DNA from: a virus
DNA length: 19,427 nt
Strand: one strand, 5' to 3'
Virus genome (UHGV): UHGV-0123532
Part shown: positions 3,640-16,450 of the stretch, in pieces
Layout of the letters: each line of letters opens with the position of its first letter
How positions within the stretch are numbered: position 1 is the first letter of the stretch
The notes under the pieces: model-generated
Database searches by the model: none
What the model was told of the DNA's origin: nothing
The model's input: only the letters and a program-made list of their open reading frames with translations
Program-made: the position numbers and the translations under genes

Positions 3640-4440
3640 TTAACCGCGCTTCGCCTTCTGCGACGCGGTGGTTTTTCGTGTTGCAGGCTTCTGCGTTGTC
3701 TTTTTACTTTTGCTGCTTTCGTCCTGCGTCTGCTGTGCGCTGGCGTCTTCTGGTGCGGCTGCGGAATCGGCTTTTTTCAGGGCGCGGGAAAGGGTTGCAA
3801 TCTCGCGTTTCACACCTGCGTTCGGGTTCAGGTGCATCGCTTCGCGCAGCAGCTTCAGTGATGAGGCCATGTTGTCTGCATCGGTCAGGCCACGACGGGC
3901 AAAGGCACACGCCTTGCATAATTTGGCGCGCACTTCGTCCGGCATGTCCTGGTTGGCGACAATTTCCCAAAGTGTGTCCAGTGGTTCGATAAAGGCGGAT
4001 AAATCCGCGTCGGCATCCGTCCCGGCCTGCGTCAGTACCGGGTTGCAGATTTCTTCGGTCAGTACCGTGGCAGCAGTACGGCCAAAGTTATCCGGCATGA
4101 TGAGGTTGTGACGGACCACATATGCACCAATACGCAGCGCCAGCGGAAGATCGCCGCAGTCAATCGCCCACACCATCAGCGTGGCAATTACTTCGTCCTG
4201 TTGCCCGCCGTCAGTCTCCAGCGTTCCCTCAATCCAGCCGGAAAAGTCCGGCAACAACTCTTTTTTGATGGCGGCTTTCGCGCTTCTGGCCTGTACGCCC
4301 TTTAGCCTGGCCTGTGCCAGACGCAGACGATACAGCACCTCTTCATGCGCGGTACGCGCGGCGTGGTCCACACCTTCATTCGCCCGGCCTGCGCGCTGTG
4401 CCATCACGTTCTGCCAGTGTTGTTGTGCAGGAGTAATCAT
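3640..4440 (-). CDS. M: terminase small (endonuclease) subunit, gpM-like
   Basis: 266-aa ORF with GGAGAG RBS; similar to remembered P2 gpM (PAQ-H, DMPDEVRAKL, basic Lys/Arg-rich tail); synteny N-M. Confidence 0.8.
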   Translation of the reverse strand: MITPAQQHWQNVMAQRAGRANEGVDHAARTAHEEVLYRLRLAQARLKGVQARSAKAAIKKELLPDFSGWIEGTLETDGGQQDEVIATLMVWAIDCGDLPLALRIGAYVVRHNLIMPDNFGRTAATVLTEEICNPVLTQAGTDADADLSAFIEPLDTLWEIVANQDMPDEVRAKLCKACAFARRGLTDADNMASSLKLLREAMHLNPNAGVKREIATLSRALKKADSAAAPEDASAQQTQDESSKSKKTTQKPATRKTTASQKAKRG

Positions 4441-4485: not shown

Positions 4486-5538
4486 TTAGCTGTCGGCGAA
4501 CTTCAGGCCAGTGATCATCGCGCACTTGCCATAGTCTTCAACGACATAAGCGTCATTGATGGACTGGTAGGTGGCGATGCGGTTGTATTCCGGCTCGTCT
4601 TTCATCAGGCGACGCATTGAACCTTTCTGCCAGTAAATCGACAGGTTGTTGAACGAGGTGATAAGCATCGTTGCATCCGGGAAGAACGGCGCAAGGAACA
4701 CGCCCAGCCCGCCAATGGTGCGCGATGACAGGATGAGCTGCCCGGCAAGTAATTCCGCATTGGGATTCTGGCCGCTGATGCTGTTCAGCACGGGCAGACG
4801 CAGCGAGTTAAACAGGTTGCGCCCCATAATCACCGCGAGGTCGTCAGCTTCCTTGTGCCATTCATCCAGCAGGGATGAGCGCGCATCCTGTACCAGAGCA
4901 TCGGCATTCGCATACTTACCCGCGTGCGCCACAGTGTTGTCCATGTTGCGGGAGGTCAGCGTCACGTCATTCATTACGCGCTCGCTGGCATCGGTTCTGA
5001 TGTGCTCCAGCCAGCCCACGTTAACGTCCTGAAGCAGCTTGTTGGTGTGAAAATCAGACTCGTAGGCGTGGGATGTGCCGTTAAAGCCAATCATGATGCG
5101 ATCAAGCGCTACCTGCCGGGCGATCTGTGTACTGATACGGGACTGAAAATCGCTGTGGGCCGCCCAGGTATCAAGCTGTGGGTACGAAATAAAGGTATCG
5201 TAGTTCACCTGTTCGCACTGGTACTGACGAGACTTCATATCGATCACGTTATTCGGGTTACGGCGTTTGATGCCGTCATAACTGCTATTCGTGCGCGCAA
5301 TTGGCCCGGTGGTGTCCAGGAGGATTTTTTCGCCTTTCTGGTCGGTCACGCCGATCACGTTAATTCTTTTCGTAAATTCGGTACTTTCCTTTGAGGCGTT
5401 TTCAAAACGCTGCTGCACCGCGGGTTCCACGGTAAATCGCGATACCAGTGCAGATACCGGGATATTGTTAAGCGACGCCTGCTGCGCCATATAGCAACCC
5501 AGCTTGTTGCGGGTAATATCTGACATCACCAGATTCAT
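4486..5538 (-). CDS. N: major capsid protein, gpN-like
   Basis: 350-aa ORF; AGGAG RBS 10 nt before ATG at 5536-5538; collinear similarity to P2 gpN (FTVEP, IGFNG, GWL, LSIYW, YVVEDY). Confidence 0.9.
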   Translation of the reverse strand: MNLVMSDITRNKLGCYMAQQASLNNIPVSALVSRFTVEPAVQQRFENASKESTEFTKRINVIGVTDQKGEKILLDTTGPIARTNSSYDGIKRRNPNNVIDMKSRQYQCEQVNYDTFISYPQLDTWAAHSDFQSRISTQIARQVALDRIMIGFNGTSHAYESDFHTNKLLQDVNVGWLEHIRTDASERVMNDVTLTSRNMDNTVAHAGKYANADALVQDARSSLLDEWHKEADDLAVIMGRNLFNSLRLPVLNSISGQNPNAELLAGQLILSSRTIGGLGVFLAPFFPDATMLITSFNNLSIYWQKGSMRRLMKDEPEYNRIATYQSINDAYVVEDYGKCAMITGLKFADS

Positions 5539-5561: not shown

Positions 5562-5938
5562 TCAGAAGTCAGCCAGCTGGTCGGAGGCTGCGCCCGTTGC
5601 GGTGAAGCGGTTCTGCGGATCGCCGTCCTGTGTGCGCAGTTTTTCCTTCAATGCTGTCAGCTCTGTGGTCAGTGACGTGATTTTCTGGCGGTCCTGCTGA
5701 TGGCGGGTTCCGTAATATCTTCCGTACTCAGCGCGGTGACATCGCCCATTGCGGAAAATTCGCTTGACGGGCATGGCGAGAGATAGTGCTCAACGTTCAC
5801 GCGGGCAGCGTAAACATCCGGGTTGAAGTTCTCGGCGGCTTCACGCAGATGTACCTGGCTGATTTCGCGGCCATCAACAGTTGATCCGGAGACAGCCACG
5901 CGAAACTTTTTGCGGGATGTCTTTTTTTCATTAGCCAT
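5562..5938 (-). pseudogene. O: capsid scaffold gpO-like, internally deleted and frameshifted
   Basis: N-terminal piece (MANEKKTSRKKFRVAVSGSTVDGREISQVHLREAAENFNPDVYAARVNVEHY..GDV) in one frame and C-terminal piece (TELTALKEKL...ATGAASDQLADF) in another; total locus about 377 bp against about 855 bp for P2 O. Confidence 0.6.
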
Positions 5939-6092: not shown

Positions 6093-7844
6093 ATGATTCA
6101 GGACGCTTTTGTGCGCCAGCGTGCGCGGCAACTTTACTGGCAGGGTTATCCGCCCGCAGAAATATCACGTCTGATGGGAATAAACCCGAACACGATTTAT
6201 GCGTGGAAAAAACGCGACCAGTGGGATGAAACGCCACCCGTGCAGCGTGTCACGCAGTCCATCGATGCGCGCCTCATCCAGCTTACTGAAAAACAGAATA
6301 AAACAGGCGGTGACTTTAAGGAAATTGACCTGCTGACCCGGCAGCTTAAAAAAATGCATGATGGCCAGCCGGATGCGACGGCCACAGGAAAGAAAGGCCG
6401 GGCGAAAAAACTCAAAAATCATTTCACGCCGGAACAGATTGCCGCACTGCGGGAAAAAATCATCAGCAGGCTGGAGTGGCATCAGCGGGGCTGGTTTGAC
6501 TCCCTGACCCTTTGCAGGGAAGCCGGGATACGTAACAGGATGATCCTGAAATCCCGACAGATTGGCGCGACCTGGTATTTTGCACAGGAAGCACTGCTGA
6601 TGGCGCTGCGTGACGATGTGGCGCAACCTTACCAGCGTAACCAGATTTTTTTGTCTGCGTCGCGTCGTCAGGCGTTCCAGTTTAAAAGCATTATTCAGAA
6701 GGCTGCGGCTGAAGTTGATGTGGAGCTGAAAGGGGGCGATAAAATCATCCTCTCCAACGGCGCAGAGCTGCATTTTCTCGGCACTTCTGCTGCGTCGGCG
6801 CAGTCCTATACGGGCAATTTTTATTTTGATGAATTTTTCTGGGTCAGTCGCTTTGCTGAACTGCGCAAGGTGGCTGGCGCTATGGCAACCCTCAGCGGAT
6901 TGCGGCGCACCTACTTCTCCACGCCATCCACCGAAACGCACGAAGCATACGCCTACTGGAACGGCGACCGCTGGAACGAGAAAAAGGCCACACATAAACG
7001 CCAGCGTTTTTCTGTGGACTGGAAAACACTGCATAACGGGCTTATCTGCCCTGACCGGACGTGGCGGCAAATTGTCACGCTGGAAGATGTGGTTAATCAC
7101 GGCTGGAAACACACCGATATCGACGAAATTCGTGATGAAAACACCGAAGACGAGTTCCTCAATCTCTATATGTGTGAGTTTGTCCGCGAAGGGGAATCGG
7201 CATTTAACCTGAATATCCTGATTGGCTGCGGTGTTGACGGATACGACGACTGGAAAGACTGGAAACCTTTTGCTCCCCGCCCGATGGGGAATCGTCCGGT
7301 ATGGATTGGGTATGACGCAAACGGCAGCAGTGGCAACGGCGACAGCGGCGCTGTGTCCGTGGTGGTTCCTCCGGCTGTTCCTGGTGGCCGTTTTCGAACG
7401 GTGGAGACGCGACGCGTTCAGGGGCTGGAGTTTGAAGAACAGGCCAGAGTCATTGAAGATTTCACGTATCGCTACAACGTGGAACACATCGGCATTGATG
7501 TGACGGGCGGGAACGGGGAGGCTGTTTATCAGATAGTGAAACGGTTTTTCCCTGCCGCTATTCCGTACACCTTCACGCTGTCATCAAAACGGTCGCTTGT
7601 ACTGAAAATGCTGCAAATAATGCGTGCCGGGCGGTGGGAATACGATCGCGCCGAACGCGAGCTGGTCGCGGCCTTTAACGCCGTGCGTAAGGTGAAAACA
7701 CCGGGCGGCTTTATCACTTACGAAACGGACCGCGCGAGGGGGATCAGCCACGGCGACCTTGCGTGGGCAACCATGCTTGCTGTCATTAACGAACCAATTG
7801 GCGGCGAAGGAGAAAACGAGCGTTTCACGGTTATGGAGTTCTGA
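6093..7844 (+). CDS. P: terminase large (ATPase) subunit, gpP-like
   Basis: 583-aa ORF, length and position match P2 gpP; stop overlaps the Q start (TGATG at 7842-7846). Confidence 0.85.
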   Translation: MIQDAFVRQRARQLYWQGYPPAEISRLMGINPNTIYAWKKRDQWDETPPVQRVTQSIDARLIQLTEKQNKTGGDFKEIDLLTRQLKKMHDGQPDATATGKKGRAKKLKNHFTPEQIAALREKIISRLEWHQRGWFDSLTLCREAGIRNRMILKSRQIGATWYFAQEALLMALRDDVAQPYQRNQIFLSASRRQAFQFKSIIQKAAAEVDVELKGGDKIILSNGAELHFLGTSAASAQSYTGNFYFDEFFWVSRFAELRKVAGAMATLSGLRRTYFSTPSTETHEAYAYWNGDRWNEKKATHKRQRFSVDWKTLHNGLICPDRTWRQIVTLEDVVNHGWKHTDIDEIRDENTEDEFLNLYMCEFVREGESAFNLNILIGCGVDGYDDWKDWKPFAPRPMGNRPVWIGYDANGSSGNGDSGAVSVVVPPAVPGGRFRTVETRRVQGLEFEEQARVIEDFTYRYNVEHIGIDVTGGNGEAVYQIVKRFFPAAIPYTFTLSSKRSLVLKMLQIMRAGRWEYDRAERELVAAFNAVRKVKTPGGFITYETDRARGISHGDLAWATMLAVINEPIGGEGENERFTVMEF

Positions 7845-8890
7845 TGAGCAGAAAAAATAAAAAAGTGCGCATGAGTTCACGCATTGATCTCGCTGATGCA
7901 CTCAGGAAAGAATCGTCGCTCAGTGCATTCACTTTTGATGGTCCTTATCGCCTGACCGGGCATGATTTGCTGGACAATATGTACTGTGCTGATAACGGGC
8001 GGTGGTATGAAACCCCGGTGGACTGGTACGGTCTGGCAAGAGCCGCCCGGCAAACGTCCTGGCATCAGTCTGCGCTTTACTTTAAGCGCAATGTATTGCT
8101 CGGTTGCTACATCCCGCACCCGCTGCTTTCCCGGCAGGATTTCTCGGCACTGGCGCTGGACTGGTTTGTGTTCGGTAACGCATTCCTTGAGCTTCGAAGC
8201 AATATGCTCGGCGAACCGCTTAAATTACGGCACGCCCTGGCGAAATACATACGACGCGGAAGCGATCTTGAATCATGGTGGTATGTGCAGGATGGCAAGG
8301 ATGCGTTCCAGTTTCGCCCTGGCAAAGTGTGCCACCTGATGAATCCTGACATTAACCAGGAAATCTACGGCATGCCGGAATATCTCGGCGCATTACTCTC
8401 GGCCAGCCTGTCTCATTCGGCGGACATGTTCAGAAAACTGTATTACGACAACGGATCCCACGCCGGGTGCATCATCTACATCGGTGCAGCGCAGGTAAAC
8501 CGCGAAAGCATGGACTCTCTGAAAGAAACGCTACAGGGTGCACGTGGTGGCGGTGCGTTTAAAAACGTGCTCATTCATGCGCCCAACGGGGGCAAAGAGG
8601 GGGTGCAAATTTTGCCGTTCCAGCAGATCACCGCAAAGGATGAGTTCATGAATGTTAAGGCGGCATCCCGTGATGATGTGCTGGCTGCGCACCGCGTTCC
8701 GCCGCAACTAATGGGGGCGATGCCGGGTGAAAAAAGTGCGTTTGGTGATGTGGAGAAGGCCGCGCGGGTTTACGCAATTAACGAGCTGATGCCCATCATG
8801 GAGGCCATGAAGCACATCAATGACTGGCTTGGCGAAGAGGTGATCCGCTTTAACCCTTACGCACTGTTAGATACCCAGCTCACATCCTGA
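7844..8890 (+). CDS. Q: portal (capsid vertex) protein, gpQ-like
   Basis: 348-aa ORF translationally coupled to P; length and position match P2 gpQ. Confidence 0.85.
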   Translation: MSRKNKKVRMSSRIDLADALRKESSLSAFTFDGPYRLTGHDLLDNMYCADNGRWYETPVDWYGLARAARQTSWHQSALYFKRNVLLGCYIPHPLLSRQDFSALALDWFVFGNAFLELRSNMLGEPLKLRHALAKYIRRGSDLESWWYVQDGKDAFQFRPGKVCHLMNPDINQEIYGMPEYLGALLSASLSHSADMFRKLYYDNGSHAGCIIYIGAAQVNRESMDSLKETLQGARGGGAFKNVLIHAPNGGKEGVQILPFQQITAKDEFMNVKAASRDDVLAAHRVPPQLMGAMPGEKSAFGDVEKAARVYAINELMPIMEAMKHINDWLGEEVIRFNPYALLDTQLTS

Positions 8891-8917
8891 CGCGCTTCGC
8901 TTGTCTGCTGCTTCGCC

Positions 8918-8940
8918 GGGGCATAAAAAATTTATGCCCC
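8918..8940. terminator. hairpin downstream of Q (ggggcataaa-aaa-tttatgcccc)
   Basis: Perfect 10-bp stem with 3-nt loop starting 28 bp after the Q stop; no clean U-tract, so a weak or factor-assisted terminator. Confidence 0.4.
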
Positions 8941-9220
8941 GACTCTCCAGCTCCTGTATCAGTCAGATAATTTCACGACGCTTTACAGTATATCGCCACC
9001 ATCGACGGTCAGACTCTTACGCAATCCCACCGCGTTGACTGCATGTTCTTCGCCGCCTCAGTGCGATTTTGACGGCCTTACCTTTCACCCCATCAAATCA
9101 GAATCCCTCACGTATTTTTCACGCTCAGCGTGAGAAATACAGCCATTCTGTTGTGTCTCTGCGACATCGTTCAGGGAATGCTATTTACCCCCTGAAACGC
9201 GGGCTGTTCCCCCGTCACCT

Positions 9221-9272
9221 GCGCGCAGAAAAAACGCGTTTTTTTGTGCATGCACGGATCCTTGACGGATCC
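9221..9272. repeat. dense cluster of short palindromes
   Basis: GCGCGC (9221-9226), AAAAAACGCGTTTTTT (9229-9244), GTGCATGCAC (9246-9255), GGATCC twice (9256-9261, 9267-9272), all seen directly. Confidence 0.6.
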
Positions 9273-9315
9273 AGCCGCCACGCGGGCCGGAAGGGTAAAA
9301 AGTCGTTCAAAAAAA

Positions 9316-9345
9316 TTGTGCAAATTTGTGCACTATTGTGCAAAC
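9316..9345. repeat. three tandem copies of TTGTGCA at exact 10-bp period
   Basis: tTGTGCAaat / tTGTGCActa / tTGTGCAaac at 9316, 9326, 9336; helical-turn phasing suggests a protein-binding array. Confidence 0.55.
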
Positions 9346-9581
9346 CGAACGGAGTGCTTATTTATAGAAAAATTGAGCCTATGTATACGACGTTGCTTAT
9401 AAATACATCCCTGACTGTTATGTGAAAATATGCAAAGAAAATTACATGCTATGGAGATGAGAGTTATAACGACCTTTTCTACTTATTTGTAAAAGAGGTC
9501 GTTATGTAAAAGTTAAATTATTTTTTACTCTTGATATGTGTAAAAAATATAGCTTTGATGTTTATATCCTATTAGAATATA

Positions 9582-11279
9582 TTATTTATCCTCTTTAATG
9601 ATTTTGTTATAGTCAAAATCCCAAATTTTTCTGTCAATGCCGTTTGTTGGTGTAACCCGGTAGAATAAGGATCGTAATCCATTGTAAAAATACTGGAGAG
9701 ATTTCTGATTTTCTGGTTTGTCTAACCAGTTTCTTGTAATCATTCTAAAGAATTCAATATGCTGATTGAATATTTTCTTATTTAATTTTCTTCTTAAACC
9801 GGATGTAGACTCATGGTTGTCTTTTCTTTTCTGAATTTCAGTTTCAATTGATTGTAATTGAGGACGTATCTTGAGTAAGTATAACTCTTTCGAAAAACCA
9901 TTGTTAATTATATCCTGATTTTCCCAGAAGGAAGAGTCGTCGGTATTATAAAGGTGCTCACAATGCTCAAATATCAATTGTTCTGGAGCTTTTTCACCCG
10001 GCAGTGATATAATTCCTCTCTGATCCTCAGGGCTGTGATCTCCATCAAGAATACAAATTGATTTTAACGAGGTTTCCTTAAGATGAGAATCATTAAAAAT
10101 AGTTTTTAAATTGTCTGCACCAATGAAACAATCAATTAAGTGAAATGAATTACTAACTATAGCAAAATTTGGATATTTGCTTATCCAATAACCAAGTATT
10201 TCATTAAATAAAAAGCGAGCTTCTTCATCTTCCGTGAAAACTGGTATCTTGTTCCTTGTGTATATCTCATCCTTTGTTTGTGTTTTCAGATACATTGTTA
10301 TTTTTAATATATCAGGATTATCCAAAAGCAGAGCCTTTGTAATATTGTTAATTAGATAGACAACATGGTATTTTTTATGAAAAGCATATTCTAGCAATGT
10401 CAGACTGTGCGTTGTGAAAAATACTTGAATCTTATAATCTTTTGCGTATTGATAAATTTTATCTAATAATCTTATCTGTAAAGAAGGATGTAAAGTGGCA
10501 TCAAATTCATCTATTAACAGAATGCTTTCTTTTTGATCAGTGGATTGAATAAGTGATTCAAAATAATACCTAAGGCTAACTAATGCCTTGATTATAATGA
10601 ATATATTGTCTTCCCCGGATGATATGGTATTAGAATCAATTGCTGGGTTATCGGTATCAAATAATGGGCCAGCTTTAAAATCTCCGATATTGTTTGATTC
10701 TATATTTATAATATTAATGCCCAAAAGTTCATTATATATTTTCGATATATAACCAACATACTCTTCTGGTAGGTTTAACGGAATTTTTGTAAGGGCGTCG
10801 TCTTTAGTTTCACCAATTGGGAATAGTCGCGATAATCCAAGATATAAAACTGGTTTAGCTGGAAGTGATTGTTTTTCTTTTCCGCGTGGGTATACTGGTT
10901 TGATAGCATACCGTTGCGCTTCGTCTGGATTTTTTGAGTTGTGCTTTCTGAAGTCTAGTGTGCTATGATCCAAATAGTTAATAGAAAATAACACACCTTT
11001 TGTTCCCTCTGCCGGATCGGTGTAATTTTTTGATTCCCTAACAATTGCTTCCATTTTGGGGTTGGCTATTTTGTTTATAGATTTTATAACTCTAACACAA
11101 TTACTATTTGAATAATTTTGTGATCGAGATGGTGGCATTTGGAAACCATTGCTAATTAAATGAAGCAATGTTGTCTTACATGTCCCATTGGTTCCTGATA
11201 TTATATTGATGTCTTCATTGAATGAGAAGTCAATATCTATCAGTTTCTTAAATTTTTTAAAACTAATTTCTTTAATCAT
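9582..11279 (-). CDS. OLD-family ABC-type ATPase with C-terminal Toprim-like nuclease region (565 aa)
   Basis: N-terminal P-loop SGTNGTCKTTLL; Walker B/D-loop LLIDEFDATLHP and H-loop FFTTHS typical of AAA_15/AAA_21 OLD-like ATPases; downstream conserved acidic motifs VFTEDEE and ILDGDHS spaced like the Toprim Glu and DxD; AGGA RBS; AT-rich. Confidence 0.6.
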   Translation of the reverse strand: MIKEISFKKFKKLIDIDFSFNEDINIISGTNGTCKTTLLHLISNGFQMPPSRSQNYSNSNCVRVIKSINKIANPKMEAIVRESKNYTDPAEGTKGVLFSINYLDHSTLDFRKHNSKNPDEAQRYAIKPVYPRGKEKQSLPAKPVLYLGLSRLFPIGETKDDALTKIPLNLPEEYVGYISKIYNELLGINIINIESNNIGDFKAGPLFDTDNPAIDSNTISSGEDNIFIIIKALVSLRYYFESLIQSTDQKESILLIDEFDATLHPSLQIRLLDKIYQYAKDYKIQVFFTTHSLTLLEYAFHKKYHVVYLINNITKALLLDNPDILKITMYLKTQTKDEIYTRNKIPVFTEDEEARFLFNEILGYWISKYPNFAIVSNSFHLIDCFIGADNLKTIFNDSHLKETSLKSICILDGDHSPEDQRGIISLPGEKAPEQLIFEHCEHLYNTDDSSFWENQDIINNGFSKELYLLKIRPQLQSIETEIQKRKDNHESTSGLRRKLNKKIFNQHIEFFRMITRNWLDKPENQKSLQYFYNGLRSLFYRVTPTNGIDRKIWDFDYNKIIKEDK

Positions 11280-11296
11280 CTATATCATCCTTAAAT

Positions 11297-12142
11297 TTAA
11301 ATGTCAGGGATTTTTATACCATGATTATAAATGATAATTTCTAGACCTTTTTTCTTATCTTGTGCAGTATAATTAAGCGTATAATCAGTCATATTGAATT
11401 CATGATATATGCTTTTTATTTCAGGCACATTGTCATAAGACACAACCCAAGGTAGTTGAATTTCCCGTAGTGTATTAGCGATTTTTACATGATCATCATG
11501 TTTATAAAAATTTCTATATAACTCTGCTCCTTTAACATAATAAGGTGGATCAAGATATATTAGACTATTTTGGGGTAGCAATGCTTTTTGGTGTAGCAGA
11601 AAATCTACAGCATCAAAATTCGATACGTAAATTTTCTCCTTATATGCACCAATTAGTTCAATCCTTTTAATTAACTCTTTTTTGTTGAATCTTGCATCTA
11701 ACTTCCATGGTCCTTTTTGTTCTTTCCCTCCAATAACGCCAGCCTTAAGTATTCCTGAACGGTTTGTTCTATTTAAAAAGAAAGTAGATAATGCGACTTC
11801 AAGCATACTATATTTATCATTGTTTAGGAGTATCTCCTTTTGAGTATGCCAATTTTCAATAGTCACAGGAACTTCATCAATCATTTCACATAACAGATCG
11901 TTATGATTAACCACTGCAAACCAAAAAGAATAAAGGGCAGGATCAATATCATTTATGAAGATATTTTCAACAAGACCGTTAAGGAGCAAACCTAATGCTA
12001 CACCGGCTCCACCTGCATAAGGTTCAGCATAACATCCACCAATGAGATCATTGTTGCGGAGTATTTGTTCAATATGTGGCAAGAATTTTGCCTTACCTCC
12101 CGGATAACGAAGAGGGGTTCTAAAATGAGAAGGCTTTGTCAT
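11297..12142 (-). CDS. Dam-like (D12 class) N6-adenine DNA methyltransferase (281 aa)
   Basis: LRYPGGK N-terminal motif, AdoMet motif EPYAGGAGV, catalytic DPPY; stop lies 17 bp upstream of the ATPase start, same strand. Confidence 0.85.
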   Translation of the reverse strand: MTKPSHFRTPLRYPGGKAKFLPHIEQILRNNDLIGGCYAEPYAGGAGVALGLLLNGLVENIFINDIDPALYSFWFAVVNHNDLLCEMIDEVPVTIENWHTQKEILLNNDKYSMLEVALSTFFLNRTNRSGILKAGVIGGKEQKGPWKLDARFNKKELIKRIELIGAYKEKIYVSNFDAVDFLLHQKALLPQNSLIYLDPPYYVKGAELYRNFYKHDDHVKIANTLREIQLPWVVSYDNVPEIKSIYHEFNMTDYTLNYTAQDKKKGLEIIIYNHGIKIPDI

Positions 12143-12229
12143 CCACGATTTTCTCAGTAAAAAATAAACATAATCTTAACATGGCACTTGAGTTTTCCCG
12201 ATAAAAAACATCGTCGCCGTCCATAGATA

Positions 12230-12247
12230 TTTGCATAGTTATGCAAA
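12230..12247 (-). promoter_or_regulatory. inverted repeat TTTGCATA-gt-TATGCAAA in the leader of the methyltransferase operon
   Basis: Perfect 8-bp arms seen directly; located between the predicted promoter and the MTase start, an operator-like or 5' UTR hairpin position. Confidence 0.4.
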
Positions 12248-12275
12248 AAATCCAGTTTTCAATGAATTAAGGGGA

Positions 12276-12305
12276 ATTATATCAATTGCATTCTATTCAA
12301 CACAA
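12276..12305 (-). promoter_or_regulatory. candidate sigma70 promoter for the MTase-OLD operon
   Basis: Minus strand TTGTGT-N18-TATAAT (perfect -10 at 12276-12281, -35 at 12300-12305), immediately after the gene A stop. Confidence 0.35.
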
Positions 12306-12327: not shown

Positions 12328-15153
12328 TCATCCCTCATGATGGAAAAGGCATATCCAACTTTGTAATTGTTTTTTCTCATCATCATTTTGATTACTAAAG
12401 TGCTGTTTGCCTCTCTTTTGGAGCAAAGTAGCCTTGCGGCGGGCGCGTTCAGTGGTTTCATTGATTCTTTGTGCGTGCTCTGCGTCACGGATGGCGCGCA
12501 GCATGTCAGAAAGCACGGTAACGGGGGTTTTCATGGTGTTCTGGTCCTGCTGAAGTGTGGATGCCAGACGTGCGGCGGCTTCGGGGTCTGATGCCCCCAG
12601 TTGTTCCAGATAGCTGGCGACCGGGTTATGACGGATCTCTGTGCTGCTTACGCCGTGATTACGGCTCAGGCGCTGCCAGAGCTGCGTAATTCGGCTGGCC
12701 GGGCGGGTATCCGGTTTGCGTACAATTTCAAATCCCTGCGGTGCAATGATGCTGCCGTCAACGTACAGGCTGCCGCCCCGTAACAGGTGCTGCATCTGCT
12801 GTTCACCGATATGCAGGCCGAGAGATTCGGCAGATTCCCGCCATTCTTTAGCGAGTAATTCGTGGTTATCAGGCAAAGGCCGCTGCTGTTTGCGGCTCTG
12901 TGTCCAGCTCTGCATTTCATCACTGCTGTTTTTTGCCTGTTTGTCACGAAGCGAACGCATCAGCGCCCGGCGTTCGTGCCGTTTCAGTGAGCGCATCCAT
13001 TCGTTCACTTCAACGCCGTCAGGAAGCTGCGGCCACGGTGCTGGCCGTTCTTTCGACTGTTCTGTCCCGCTGTTGCCTGTTTCCTGTACACGGGGACAGT
13101 TATTGCCACGAGTCCAAGGGGCGGCAGGGCCGCCCTGAAGGTCAAAACCATTTTCGCGGGCGCTGTCTTCCGCTTCCGGTTTGCGTCTTACCAGCTTCCA
13201 GTTATCCGGATGCGTGCACACACGGGAGGATTCCCCGATGAGTGGTGACCAGATCCCGTAAATCTGTACGCTCTGTTCGCCGTAATCGTTCAGCTCATCG
13301 GCGAGGTCGTAGGCGGTGCGAATCAGGTAGTCTTTGCGTGGAACAAGTACGCCGCCCTGTTTCTCAATGTAGGTGGCAAAACATCCGGCATCAGCGGCAG
13401 CAAGAACCGCATCCATTGCGTCATCCTTCAGCCGTTGCGGGCCTTCCGGGTTGCGTGCCATCTGGCTGGCAAGGCGACGCAGTTCACGCCACACCTGACG
13501 GGAGGGGATGCCAAAGAACTGGAACTGGCGGACCCGGTGAAGGCGCGCCCAGCCAATGGCGCGTTCCACGCTCTCGGTCATTGATTTTCCGGTTTCGTGG
13601 TCAACGCGTGGTTTGCCTGTTTTCGGGTCGATGCCATCCACGGCGCGGCTGTCCAGGTTTTTTCCGATGTAGGTGGCGATGTAGCTGGTTGGCGTGCCTT
13701 TTGAGCCGTCGACATACTCCGCCTTAAAGCGCGGAGTAATATCATCGCCCAGCTCGTGACGATCTTCCTGAATGGCAATATCGCGGGTGTGGGACACAAT
13801 GGTGTCGATTTCTTCCGGATGAGCAAAGACCATCATATGCCAGTGCACGGTGCCGTCATGGTGAGGCTCCACCGTGCGGATGCCATACCAGCGCAGGCCG
13901 TCGCGGTTCAGTTTCTTGCGGACCGCCGCAAAAAACGTGTTAACCAGGTAATCGCTGGAGTCGCGCATGGTGGCCCCGTTCCATTTGGGATTCGGATGAC
14001 CGTTCTCTGTTGTAGCGTGGTATTTTGACGGGCAGGTGACAGTCAGAAACACCGCTTTGTCGCCACGGGCTTCGGCCAGAAGTTCCAGCCCCTTCATGGT
14101 GGCCATCATTTCTGCCTTACGGTGAACCGGGTTACTTACTCCCGCGTAATACACTGTCTCGAGATCAATCGTGAACCCGTCTTCGTTTTCCAGCATGAAA
14201 CTTTTCAGGAAATCGCGTGTTTTCTCGCGCTGTGCGCGAAACTCGCTTAACGCGTCCTGGCTCAGATAGGGCGATGTTTTTCTGGAAACCAGACAGGCGG
14301 CGCGGAGTTGTTCTTCTCTCCACTCGCAACGTAACAGCCACAGTTTGCGTTTCCACCATTCCGCACAGGTCAGGCGAAGGATTGCGCCCGGCAGCAGCTC
14401 CGTGTCCGGTTCGTTCCTCCGGTCTTTGTCTGTTGTCAGTGCGTCATAATGTGGAGGCATGGCGTGCAGGTGTAACGCCATGCGGGCCAGCATCTGATAC
14501 GCCTTCAGCGTTACATCCATGGTCAGTTCGCCATCGGTCGCGCCAAAGCCATCGCAGAGTTTTTCGAAGGTGCTGCTGAACATCGCCGCCGTCATGGTGG
14601 CCAGCGTCTGTATCTGGTGTTTGTTGAGCTGCGGCAGGTAAAGCAAATCGTCCAGGCGTTCGCGTCCGGCAAGGGAGCGATAACCCTGTGTCAGCCAGCG
14701 GTGATCGGTGCGCTCCAGACGTTCGAATATTTTGCGCAGGTTTCCGCGCGCGTAGCGTTCAGCCTGCCAGCTCTTTTTGCCTTTCTGACGATCGGCTTCC
14801 TGTTTTTTGCGCAGGAAGGAGAGGTGGCGAATAAGCGGATCGCGCAGATAGGACGGCAGCAGGCGCAGCGAGGCCATGGCTTCATCCACCGCACCGCGTG
14901 CCTGTTTTCTGGCGTCTCCTGCCAGTGTGATGGTTTTGTCCTGTTTTTCCTGTGCGTCCAGGCTTTTATTAATCAGGTTGCCCAGCGGCGTTGCGGAGAA
15001 CGCCGCATCAGCCATTTCCTGGCGGCGCTCGTTCTCTACCCGGTAGGCATCCAGCCAGGAGGAAAGCGCGGATTCAGGAGCGGGGATCCCCGTTCCTTCA
15101 CGCCCCACTGCGTGGCGCGGTTGTTGCCAGTCCCTGATGTACTCTGCCGTCAT
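12328..15153 (-). CDS. A: replication initiation endonuclease, gpA-like (rolling-circle HUH type), 941 aa
   Basis: HUH-type motif TVHWHMMVF and paired tyrosines YIATYIGK characteristic of P2 A-family proteins; position after the early operon. Confidence 0.85.
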   Translation of the reverse strand: MTAEYIRDWQQPRHAVGREGTGIPAPESALSSWLDAYRVENERRQEMADAAFSATPLGNLINKSLDAQEKQDKTITLAGDARKQARGAVDEAMASLRLLPSYLRDPLIRHLSFLRKKQEADRQKGKKSWQAERYARGNLRKIFERLERTDHRWLTQGYRSLAGRERLDDLLYLPQLNKHQIQTLATMTAAMFSSTFEKLCDGFGATDGELTMDVTLKAYQMLARMALHLHAMPPHYDALTTDKDRRNEPDTELLPGAILRLTCAEWWKRKLWLLRCEWREEQLRAACLVSRKTSPYLSQDALSEFRAQREKTRDFLKSFMLENEDGFTIDLETVYYAGVSNPVHRKAEMMATMKGLELLAEARGDKAVFLTVTCPSKYHATTENGHPNPKWNGATMRDSSDYLVNTFFAAVRKKLNRDGLRWYGIRTVEPHHDGTVHWHMMVFAHPEEIDTIVSHTRDIAIQEDRHELGDDITPRFKAEYVDGSKGTPTSYIATYIGKNLDSRAVDGIDPKTGKPRVDHETGKSMTESVERAIGWARLHRVRQFQFFGIPSRQVWRELRRLASQMARNPEGPQRLKDDAMDAVLAAADAGCFATYIEKQGGVLVPRKDYLIRTAYDLADELNDYGEQSVQIYGIWSPLIGESSRVCTHPDNWKLVRRKPEAEDSARENGFDLQGGPAAPWTRGNNCPRVQETGNSGTEQSKERPAPWPQLPDGVEVNEWMRSLKRHERRALMRSLRDKQAKNSSDEMQSWTQSRKQQRPLPDNHELLAKEWRESAESLGLHIGEQQMQHLLRGGSLYVDGSIIAPQGFEIVRKPDTRPASRITQLWQRLSRNHGVSSTEIRHNPVASYLEQLGASDPEAAARLASTLQQDQNTMKTPVTVLSDMLRAIRDAEHAQRINETTERARRKATLLQKRGKQHFSNQNDDEKKQLQSWICLFHHEG

Positions 15154-16150: not shown

Positions 16151-16450
16151 TTACTGGTTCAGAAAAAAATCAAAAACCTTGTCAATGCGTTGCAGCAGCT
16201 CTTGCTGTATTGCTTCCGGTGTTTCCGGTTCGCCTGGCGCCTTCAACGTCGCGCAGAAATCAGCGATTTCATGATGGAGCGTCAGGCGAATGGCAGGAGC
16301 CGTGGTTCTGGCGTGCTCCAGCTCATCCAGCAGTGCCAGCACGGCAGACGGCGAGAGCATTGCGCGAAATGCCAGTAATTTTTGAGGCGTTGCCATTCGT
16401 TGCAGGGCAAATGCCAGTTCGCGTAGCTTCTGGTGGTTGATGGTGCTCAT
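16151..16450 (-). CDS. hypothetical early-operon protein (99 aa)
   Basis: ORF from track; start overlaps the upstream gene stop by 4 nt. Confidence 0.5.
   Translation of the reverse strand: MSTINHQKLRELAFALQRMATPQKLLAFRAMLSPSAVLALLDELEHARTTAPAIRLTLHHEIADFCATLKAPGEPETPEAIQQELLQRIDKVFDFFLNQ

Follow-up and report, generated by a model that had tools for sequence, protein, structure and literature searches.

Positions 9189-9345 of the virus genome UHGV-0123532, a stretch of 19,427 nucleotides that was analyzed whole and is referred to here as the window, most probably form the cohesive-end packaging site (cos) of a P88-like prophage (Xuanwuvirus, Peduoviridae), homologous throughout to the cos sites of P2, 186, and P4. 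We put the probability of this reading at about 0.8. Like those sites, the element lies downstream of the portal gene Q and before non-essential cargo, and the order of Q, cos, cargo (9346-12300) and gene A is identical to the layout of P2 and 186. A sequence-only reading of the window had expected by synteny that a cos would lie between Q and the cargo island, which is where we located it, and had proposed that a group of phased repeats in this region could be terminase-binding sites of a divergent cos. The kinship with cos was borne out by homology over about 155 bp and by repeats that keep the register of the ATGCA elements of P2-type phages; terminase binding is the part of that proposal that we infer.

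The evidence for this assignment begins with the order and spacing of the sequence elements. The ends of P2, 186, and P4 were joined, and all sequences were anchored on the core for comparison. The common order consists of a GC-rich flank, a 19-mer with a C4-5G core, a second GC-rich flank, about 12-19 variable nucleotides, a T-tract with an RTGCA element, a spacer of about 65 nt, and three further RTGCA elements about one helical turn apart. Counted from the core G, RTGCA starts fall at +32, +104, and +114 in P2, 186, P4, the window, and Enterobacter phage phiT5282H, and the same register is found in two SEN4-type prophages and one satellite. The elements read ATGCA in P2, 186, and P4 and GTGCA in the window lineage, and the last one starts at +124 in GTGCA types versus +126 or +127 in ATGCA types. 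In the window, where the G of the C5G core is at 9214, GTGCA starts at 9246, 9318, 9328, and 9338 (+32, +104, +114, and +124).

The sequence-only reading had described three TTGTGCA repeats at exact 10-bp spacing. They are present on the plus strand at 9316-9322, 9326-9332, and 9336-9342, exactly 10 bp start to start, and a fourth copy is found at 9244-9250. The repeat motif is not enriched in the window (7 copies versus 5.1 expected). The triple TGTGCA-N4-TGTGCA-N4-TGTGCA has a single exact occurrence in the window; with up to three mismatches allowed, 0.06 occurrences were expected from 200 shuffles and two were seen, the second being the same site on the opposite strand. It is the clustering and phasing of the repeats, rather than the motif count, that is non-random. 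The three distal repeats (9316-9342) are the presumptive terminase-recognition elements. They are preceded by an A7 tract (9309-9315, plus strand), which GTGCA-type relatives also keep and which may bend the DNA intrinsically; its position before the repeats distinguishes the window from P2-type cos sites, as do the (TT)GTGCA form of the repeats and the placement of the third distal copy. The proximal element, a T7 tract followed by GTGCA (9239-9250, plus strand), is defined by register and conservation, and it matches TTTTAATGCA of P2 and P4 within the published 55-bp cos core. This 55-bp conserved P2/P4 core is credited to Ziermann and Calendar 1990 in PMC5694545 and PMC9594776. Between the proximal and distal elements lies a semi-conserved block, CCGCCACGCGGGCCGGAAGGGTAAAAAG (9275-9302), whose counterpart in many relatives, P4 and 186 among them, is a GC-rich dyad, GCGCC...GGCGC. 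In many family members, for example in P4 with CCGCGCC-N6-GGCGCGG, the dyad stands halfway from the proximal to the distal RTGCA elements; it is absent from P2. In P2, the distal ATGCA triplet (33424-33500) is directly upstream of the mapped old/tin transcript starts (33424, 33426), so that there the cos repeats and a cargo promoter overlap or abut.

Profile searches located the same region. The nhmmer profiles were built without any P88-type sequence. The profile of P2, 186, P4, and four ATGCA-type prophages had a single match in the window with an E value below the inclusion threshold, at 9210-9343 on the plus strand (E 0.0037). When GTGCA-type prophages with a canonical core were added, the single match extended over 9189-9344 on the expected strand with an E value of 1.5e-15 (50.7 bits). 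The remainder of the window gave no significant match, the next best being 16349-16370 (E 0.42). Both independent profiles aligned the CCCCG of P2 to 9210-9214, and the alignment is homologous over about 155 bp with P2-family cos regions. The comparison with P2-like cos regions that the sequence-only reading had called for thus yielded a homologous block with the repeats included. The same reading had named a cos elsewhere in the prophage, or unconserved repeats, as grounds for abandoning its proposal; the window holds no other cos-like match, and the repeats are conserved.

This conservation extends well beyond the nearest relatives. A 23-seed profile matched 73 of 80 portal-linked loci among GTDB species representatives, always downstream of Q. 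The matched loci, from many Enterobacterales and other Proteobacteria, include some from Citrobacter, Edwardsiella, Serratia, Xenorhabdus, Photorhabdus, Yersinia, Providencia, Erwinia, Morganella, and some Betaproteobacteria. Within the P88 type, a conservation profile of 107 distinct P88-core sequences contained blocks at least 98% conserved at 9199-9226, 9240-9250, GATCC (9257-9261), parts of 9284-9302, and 9307-9342. Two further sets of loci with a P88-type core (78 viral and 20 species-representative) were selected by Q and are therefore unbiased as to the repeats. GTGCA occupies all three distal positions in 72 of the 78 and 13 of the 20 loci, the variants being single changes to GTGCG or GCGCA, and it stands at +32 in 74 and 19 of them, respectively. 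The window carries the majority base at every column conserved at 90% or more; with no deviation at well-conserved columns, its cos therefore looks intact.

The core itself has diverged. The sequence-only reading had not seen the P2 19-mer by eye, and GGCGAGGCGGGGAAAGCAC has no match in the window on either strand at up to three mismatches. The canonical cohesive-end sequence GGCG(A/T)GGCGGGGAAAGCA(C/T) was likewise not found in the window; its C-run and G core are kept. The core is nevertheless not missing: a diverged homologue, overlooked in that reading, sits at about 9201-9221, outside the stretch that it had highlighted and immediately to the left of the palindromes discussed below. Based on the profiles and the register, we predict that 9201-9221, with its C5G core, is the nicking region (cosN-like). 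Profile alignment and conservation place its left flank, CCCCTGAAACGC, at 9189-9200; the C-run and CGCG of this flank are conserved family-wide, and canonical members show GCGCGC there. The right GC-rich flank, TGCGCGCA (9220-9227), mirrors the left one and is conserved in P88-type and SEN4-type relatives. The 19-mer homologue GGGCTGTTCCCCCGTCACC occupies 9201-9219, and its reverse complement GGTGACGGGGGAACAGCCC is identical to the P2 cohesive end at 13 of 19 positions and thus differs from GGCGAGGCGGGGAAAGCAC at 6 of 19. When placed by alignment of the GC flanks, the 19-mer is 9201-9219; when placed by the P2 register from the core G, it is 9203-9221. In P2, 186, and P4 the cohesive ends are 19-nt 5′ extensions; those of the window are predicted from its sequence. 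Since the core-to-flank spacing is 1-2 nt shorter than canonical, overhang length and nick positions cannot be fixed exactly: on either side the predicted nick could be displaced by about 2 nt, and the overhang could be 16-19 nt.

Phages with intermediate combinations of core and repeats link the window to the canonical sites. A prophage of E. coli 23CRST028, whose portal is 67% identical, has three identical TTGTGCA repeats and, about 95 nt upstream of them, a P2-type end, GCGCGC-TTGCTCCCCCGCCTCGCC-TGCGCGC, to which CGCGGGCTGTTCCCCCGTCACC-TGCGCGC is the equivalent in the window. This end is close to the cohesive end of SEN4/SEN5 (PMC5261728). The Salmonella SEN4/SEN5 cos, ggcgaggcgggggaacgag (PMC5261728), and prophages L009, L020, and L094 have GTGCA-type repeats in the same register as the window, and the window and the SEN4 end share the TGCGCGC flank and the 9-mer CGGGGGAAC. 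They differ in one half of the core, which is the canonical ...CCCCCGCCTCGCC in the SEN4 type versus ...CCCCCGTCACC in the window, where the distance from core to flank is 2 nt shorter. SEN4-type sites thus join a canonical core to GTGCA repeats, and core type and repeat type therefore vary independently. Another candidate for the core, at 9265-9283, has the 9-mer CCGCCACGC in common with the 186 cos and an overall identity of 11 of 19. It was rejected since relatives do not conserve it and since the core is aligned elsewhere by both profiles.

Several observations weigh against a cos at 9189-9345. The match to the profile of P2/186/P4 type was weak (E 0.0037), the best identity to the canonical 19-mer is 13 of 19, and in the profile alignment P88-type sequences lack 1 nt to the left and 2 nt to the right of the core compared with canonical members. 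In the family at large, degenerate forms of the third repeat such as TTGCGCA or TTTGCAC are frequent. The published 55-bp core does not extend to the distal repeats, and it is their conservation that argues for a need in packaging. Our literature search found nothing on Xuanwuvirus termini or on the physical ends of P88-type phages. Finally, the one linear record that breaks inside this region, the RefSeq record of phage P88_4B11, does so at the equivalent of 9297/9298, which is 76-78 nt to the right of the predicted core.

The last of these observations raises the alternative that the true nick site is at about 9279-9297 (CACGCGGGCCGGAAGGGTA), an inverted G-rich sequence resembling cos, and that 9201-9221 has another role. 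The ends of NC_049391 (P88_4B11, Xuanwuvirus P884B11) abut at the 9297/9298 equivalent, sister records of the P88_4B11 series start at or beside the P2 cos, and one IMG/VR provirus record starts about 5 nt away. In addition, 9279-9297 is identical to the P2 19-mer at 9 of 19 positions on the opposite strand, and P88-type and phiT5282H-type sequences partly conserve the block GGGCCGGAAGGG. However, the depositors of P88_4B11 removed repeats at contig ends and set nucleotide 1 and the orientation relative to reference genomes (PMC6969025). Since nucleotide 1 was chosen by the depositors, the break in this record is not a measured terminus or cohesive end. Other contig and record ends scatter, with equivalents at about 9143, 9266, and 9267; with 9302 included, the ends of IMG/VR contigs and proviruses proved uninformative as a proxy for physical ends and were set aside. 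The block is absent or unrecognizable in SEN4-type relatives and in P2, which share the same overall architecture. The cos sites of SEN4-type phages and P2, measured in the case of P2, align instead with 9201-9221, and both profiles place the P2 CCCCG at 9210-9214. We therefore consider nicking at 9279-9297 very improbable.

The sequence-only reading had also pointed to a dense cluster of palindromes at 9221-9272 as possible functional sites. The palindromes exist. An 8+8 palindrome with the arms AAAAAACG and CGTTTTTT spans 9229-9244, and its A6-CGCG half (9228-9238) is part of a variable spacer; a second palindrome, GTGCATGCAC, is located at 9246-9255; and the direct repeat ACGGATCC occurs twice (9254-9261 and 9265-9272), with two GGATCC palindromes. 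A functional role for most of them was not supported by comparison. The A6-CGCG-T7 palindrome and the second GGATCC are restricted to the closest (P88) lineage; at both places the sequence of phiT5282H-type phages and of the satellite is unrelated. Within the direct repeat, only GATCC at 9257-9261 is conserved in relatives. The cluster is thus mostly spacer, in which only the T-tract with GTGCA (9239-9250) and GATCC are conserved. Folded as single-stranded DNA, the palindromes did no better than shuffles (z -1.5), and a hairpin or cruciform interpretation was rejected since the fold energies are not significant. Each GGATCC (9256-9261 and 9267-9272) holds a Dam-type GATC, and the adjoining cargo encodes an adenine methyltransferase. 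The proposal that the repeats might be sites for integration host factor (IHF) found no support either: none of the 27 matches to WATCAANNNNTTR in the window, with up to one mismatch, falls within 8891-9360. Rfam 15 covariance models gave no match at E ≤1 in 8800-9650. By-eye checks of the repeats as CRP sites, DnaA boxes, or Ogr/Delta sites (TGT-N12-ACA) found none that fits.

The right limit of the element was defined by megablast and blastn comparison with phages and 5,426 complete E. coli genomes. Of these genomes, 1,148 had a match, and in almost every one the homology that runs from Q through cos ends at 9342 or 9345. Conservation likewise collapses past 9342, with 55 different 20-mers directly after the third repeat among the 107 distinct sequences. 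Since homology ends at the third repeat, the repeats are the last conserved block of the backbone and not part of the cargo.

So sharp a limit could also mean that the repeats are kept mainly as a boundary for recombination at the hotspot, either as a short shared anchor or as the target of a recombinase, through which cargo cassettes could be exchanged among P2-like phages, and not for packaging. Homology across more than 1,100 genomes stops exactly at the third repeat, and cos-proximal recombination has been discussed as a driver of exchange (PMC9122126). On the other hand, a cos would in any case be expected to have its boundary where the last essential cis element ends. P4 separates the two possibilities: its repeats are on the psu side of cos, and its variable hotspot is across the core on the opposite side. 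Hence the repeats travel with cos and not with the hotspot. Moreover, the register to the core is nucleotide-exact even though the portals are only about 45-50% identical; such precision across diverged phages argues that the position of the repeats with respect to the cut is constrained, whereas an anchor for recombination would have no need of this. In view of these findings, a role of the repeats chiefly in recombination is improbable.

A further explanation, which the sequence-only reading had also entertained in the form of regulatory sites for the adjacent cargo, is that the repeats and the A-tract constitute a regulatory or insulating element for the cargo or for leftward transcription, namely cargo operators, a promoter, or a weak minus-strand terminator. 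In the last version, a GTGCAC-AAAT-TTGCAC hairpin followed by T7 would shield cos and the late genes from cargo transcripts. A terminator scan flagged the minus-strand hairpin (9333-9318) and the T-run that follows it, the minus-strand cargo genes point toward cos, and the ATGCA repeats of P2 are just upstream of old/tin transcript starts. However, the stem has only 5 bp, the minus-strand RNA folds no better than shuffles (z -0.96), and P2, 186, and P4 keep the repeats in register without a T-run. The repeats are invariant beside at least 55 different cargo junctions and do not co-vary with cargo genes; they are also kept next to different neighbors in the satellite described below and, as ATGCA, beside unrelated genes in P4. 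The profile built from the cos regions of other phages aligns them within a single homologous block. We consequently regard a regulatory or insulating function as quite improbable, and regulation of the cargo in particular is at odds with this constancy.

The cos version of the window is also carried by an element other than a phage. A 12.5-kb island between gcd and hpt in E. coli mip270_05 (NZ_CM132658, approximately 4411344-4423858), which came up as one weak E. coli match, has a P88-type core and all four GTGCA elements in identical register, and its spacer has diverged. The island encodes two integrases, a helix-turn-helix (HTH) protein, an Icd-like protein, a Toprim primase, an Ogr/Delta zinc finger protein, and MazEF, together with its own homologue of the P2-family major capsid protein (Phage_cap_P2, E 2e-72). 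No portal, terminase, or tail genes were found in the 12.5-kb island. Its cos version is present at ≥90% identity in about 56 E. coli genomes. The island is satellite-like and appears to depend on a P2-type helper. The presence of a capsid homologue in such an element recalls Ccm of SaPIbov5. P4 likewise carries cos elements, in its case of the P2 type, while the gcd-hpt island carries the window version; cos is said to be the only sequence common to P4 and P2 (PMC9122126).

By analogy with P2 and lambda, we propose the following mechanism. Terminase (gpM with gpP) would bind all four RTGCA elements, which share one orientation, along a single face of the helix, and the A/T tracts would aid DNA bending. 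The gpP nuclease would thereby be placed on the core, where staggered nicks would produce 5′ overhangs of 16-19 nt. The third repeat would be the last cis element needed, leaving sequence beyond 9342-9345 free for replacement, and the defense hotspot would for this reason start exactly past 9342-9345. Binding by a protein, the identity of the binding subunit, the positions of the nicks, and a packaging need for the distal repeats are all predictions of this model. As to the subunit, gpP has an N-terminal HTH (Terminase_5/HTH_23), which is likewise noted in the 186 record. Residues 1-70 of gpP (window 6093-6302) are the best-conserved terminase segment, with 78-87% identity among GTGCA-type phages, in which the rest of gpP is 64-77% and gpM 53-65% identical. 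The identity of the gpP HTH to those of P2 and 186, which are of the ATGCA type, is 41-43%. This pattern hints that the gpP HTH may read the repeats, in a comparison that is confounded by phylogeny. Covariation between terminase and cos type gave a mild signal, confounded in the same way, and was not relied on.

In lambda, cos consists of cosQ, cosN, and cosB, with R-sites for gpNu1 and the IHF site I1. The proposed organization would resemble it in outline, as both would combine a nick site of partial dyad symmetry with repeated small-terminase elements within about 120 bp on one side and with DNA bending between recognition elements. Unlike lambda cos, however, to which it has no sequence homology, the window region holds no IHF consensus, and the predicted overhang is about 19 nt versus 12 nt. 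The terminases differ as well: the gpM of P2 belongs to Phage_term_smal, and gpP has an N-terminal HTH of its own.

The other genes of the window agree with a P2-family prophage. According to open reading frames (ORFs) and Pfam matches, they include those for the small terminase gpM (3640-4440, minus strand), the capsid protein gpN (4486-5538, minus strand), the large terminase gpP (6093-7844, plus strand), the portal gpQ (7844-8890, plus strand), and the replication protein gpA (12328-15153, minus strand). Among deposited phages, Escherichia phage P88 and related members of Xuanwuvirus and Gemsvirus (Peduoviridae) come closest, with 95-97% identity. The gene for the capsid scaffold/protease gpO (5565-5938) lacks about 458 internal nt that P88 has, with the deletion junction at about 5687-5708, and residues 1-85 and 231-278 of P88 gpO map to the window in different reading frames. 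The prophage is therefore probably unable to build capsids, and induction would probably yield no particles. Among the 12 records listed, of 1,001 matching E. coli records, one has the same contiguous junction (NZ_AP043639, strain AST46), and in the other 11 the extra 460 nt are present.

Between Q and cos, 27 nt past the Q stop codon, a perfect 11-bp inverted repeat, CGGGGCATAAA / TTTATGCCCCG, with a 3-nt loop (8917-8941, plus strand) occupies the place of tQ in P2 and tW in 186. A T-tail is absent on both strands, and a consensus terminator scan did not call the hairpin. From the Q stop to cos the distance is about 310 nt in the window versus about 170 nt in P2-type phages, and between the hairpin and cos there are about 250 nt of extra non-coding DNA relative to P2. 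Two small ORFs (43 and 48 aa) are annotated in P88 between the Q-stop hairpin and cos; the one that overlaps the cos core is probably spurious.

On the other side of cos, the AT-rich variable cargo (9346-12300, minus strand; GC 0.27-0.37) is outside the packaging site and corresponds to the P2 cos-proximal hotspot, described by Rousset et al. as a defense hotspot between gpQ and gpA (PMC9122126). It encodes a D12-class adenine methyltransferase (11297-12142, minus strand; PADLOC PD-Lambda-5_B, E 9e-122) and an AAA_15/ABC-type ATPase (9582-11279, minus strand) with weak matches to PtuA, AriA, GajA, and HEC-04. The two proteins resemble the PD-Lambda-5 pair.

P2-family cos is a known kind of element, and the present sequence version appears to be undescribed; the window 19-mer, in either orientation, occurs in no paper of the searchable literature. 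About one in five complete E. coli genomes (1,148 of 5,426) carries this version, and annotation pipelines and cos searches that are based on the P2 19-mer will miss it. Its right limit at 9342-9345 fixes the left border of the cos-proximal defense hotspot in P88-type prophages. The P88-type cos also predicts the genome ends of the virion and supplies the cis element for cosmids or transducing particles.

That four RTGCA elements keep a nucleotide-exact register in P2, 186, P4, and remote relatives suggests a recognition module that would lie outside the published 55-bp core. It is conceivable, although we advance this only tentatively, that the P88-type cos represents a separate packaging specificity within the P2 family with satellites of its own, and that the RTGCA elements form an undescribed cosB-like module. 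If so, this specificity would be marked by a different core, possibly a 16-18-nt overhang, and GTGCA replacing ATGCA, and its satellite would be the 12.5-kb island with a P2-family capsid homologue instead of Sid/Psu. The four RTGCA elements would be common to all P2-like phages and P4 and would perhaps be read by the N-terminal HTH of gpP. Cos type would then decide which helper mobilizes which satellite, and matching of cos types could help to predict helper-satellite pairs.

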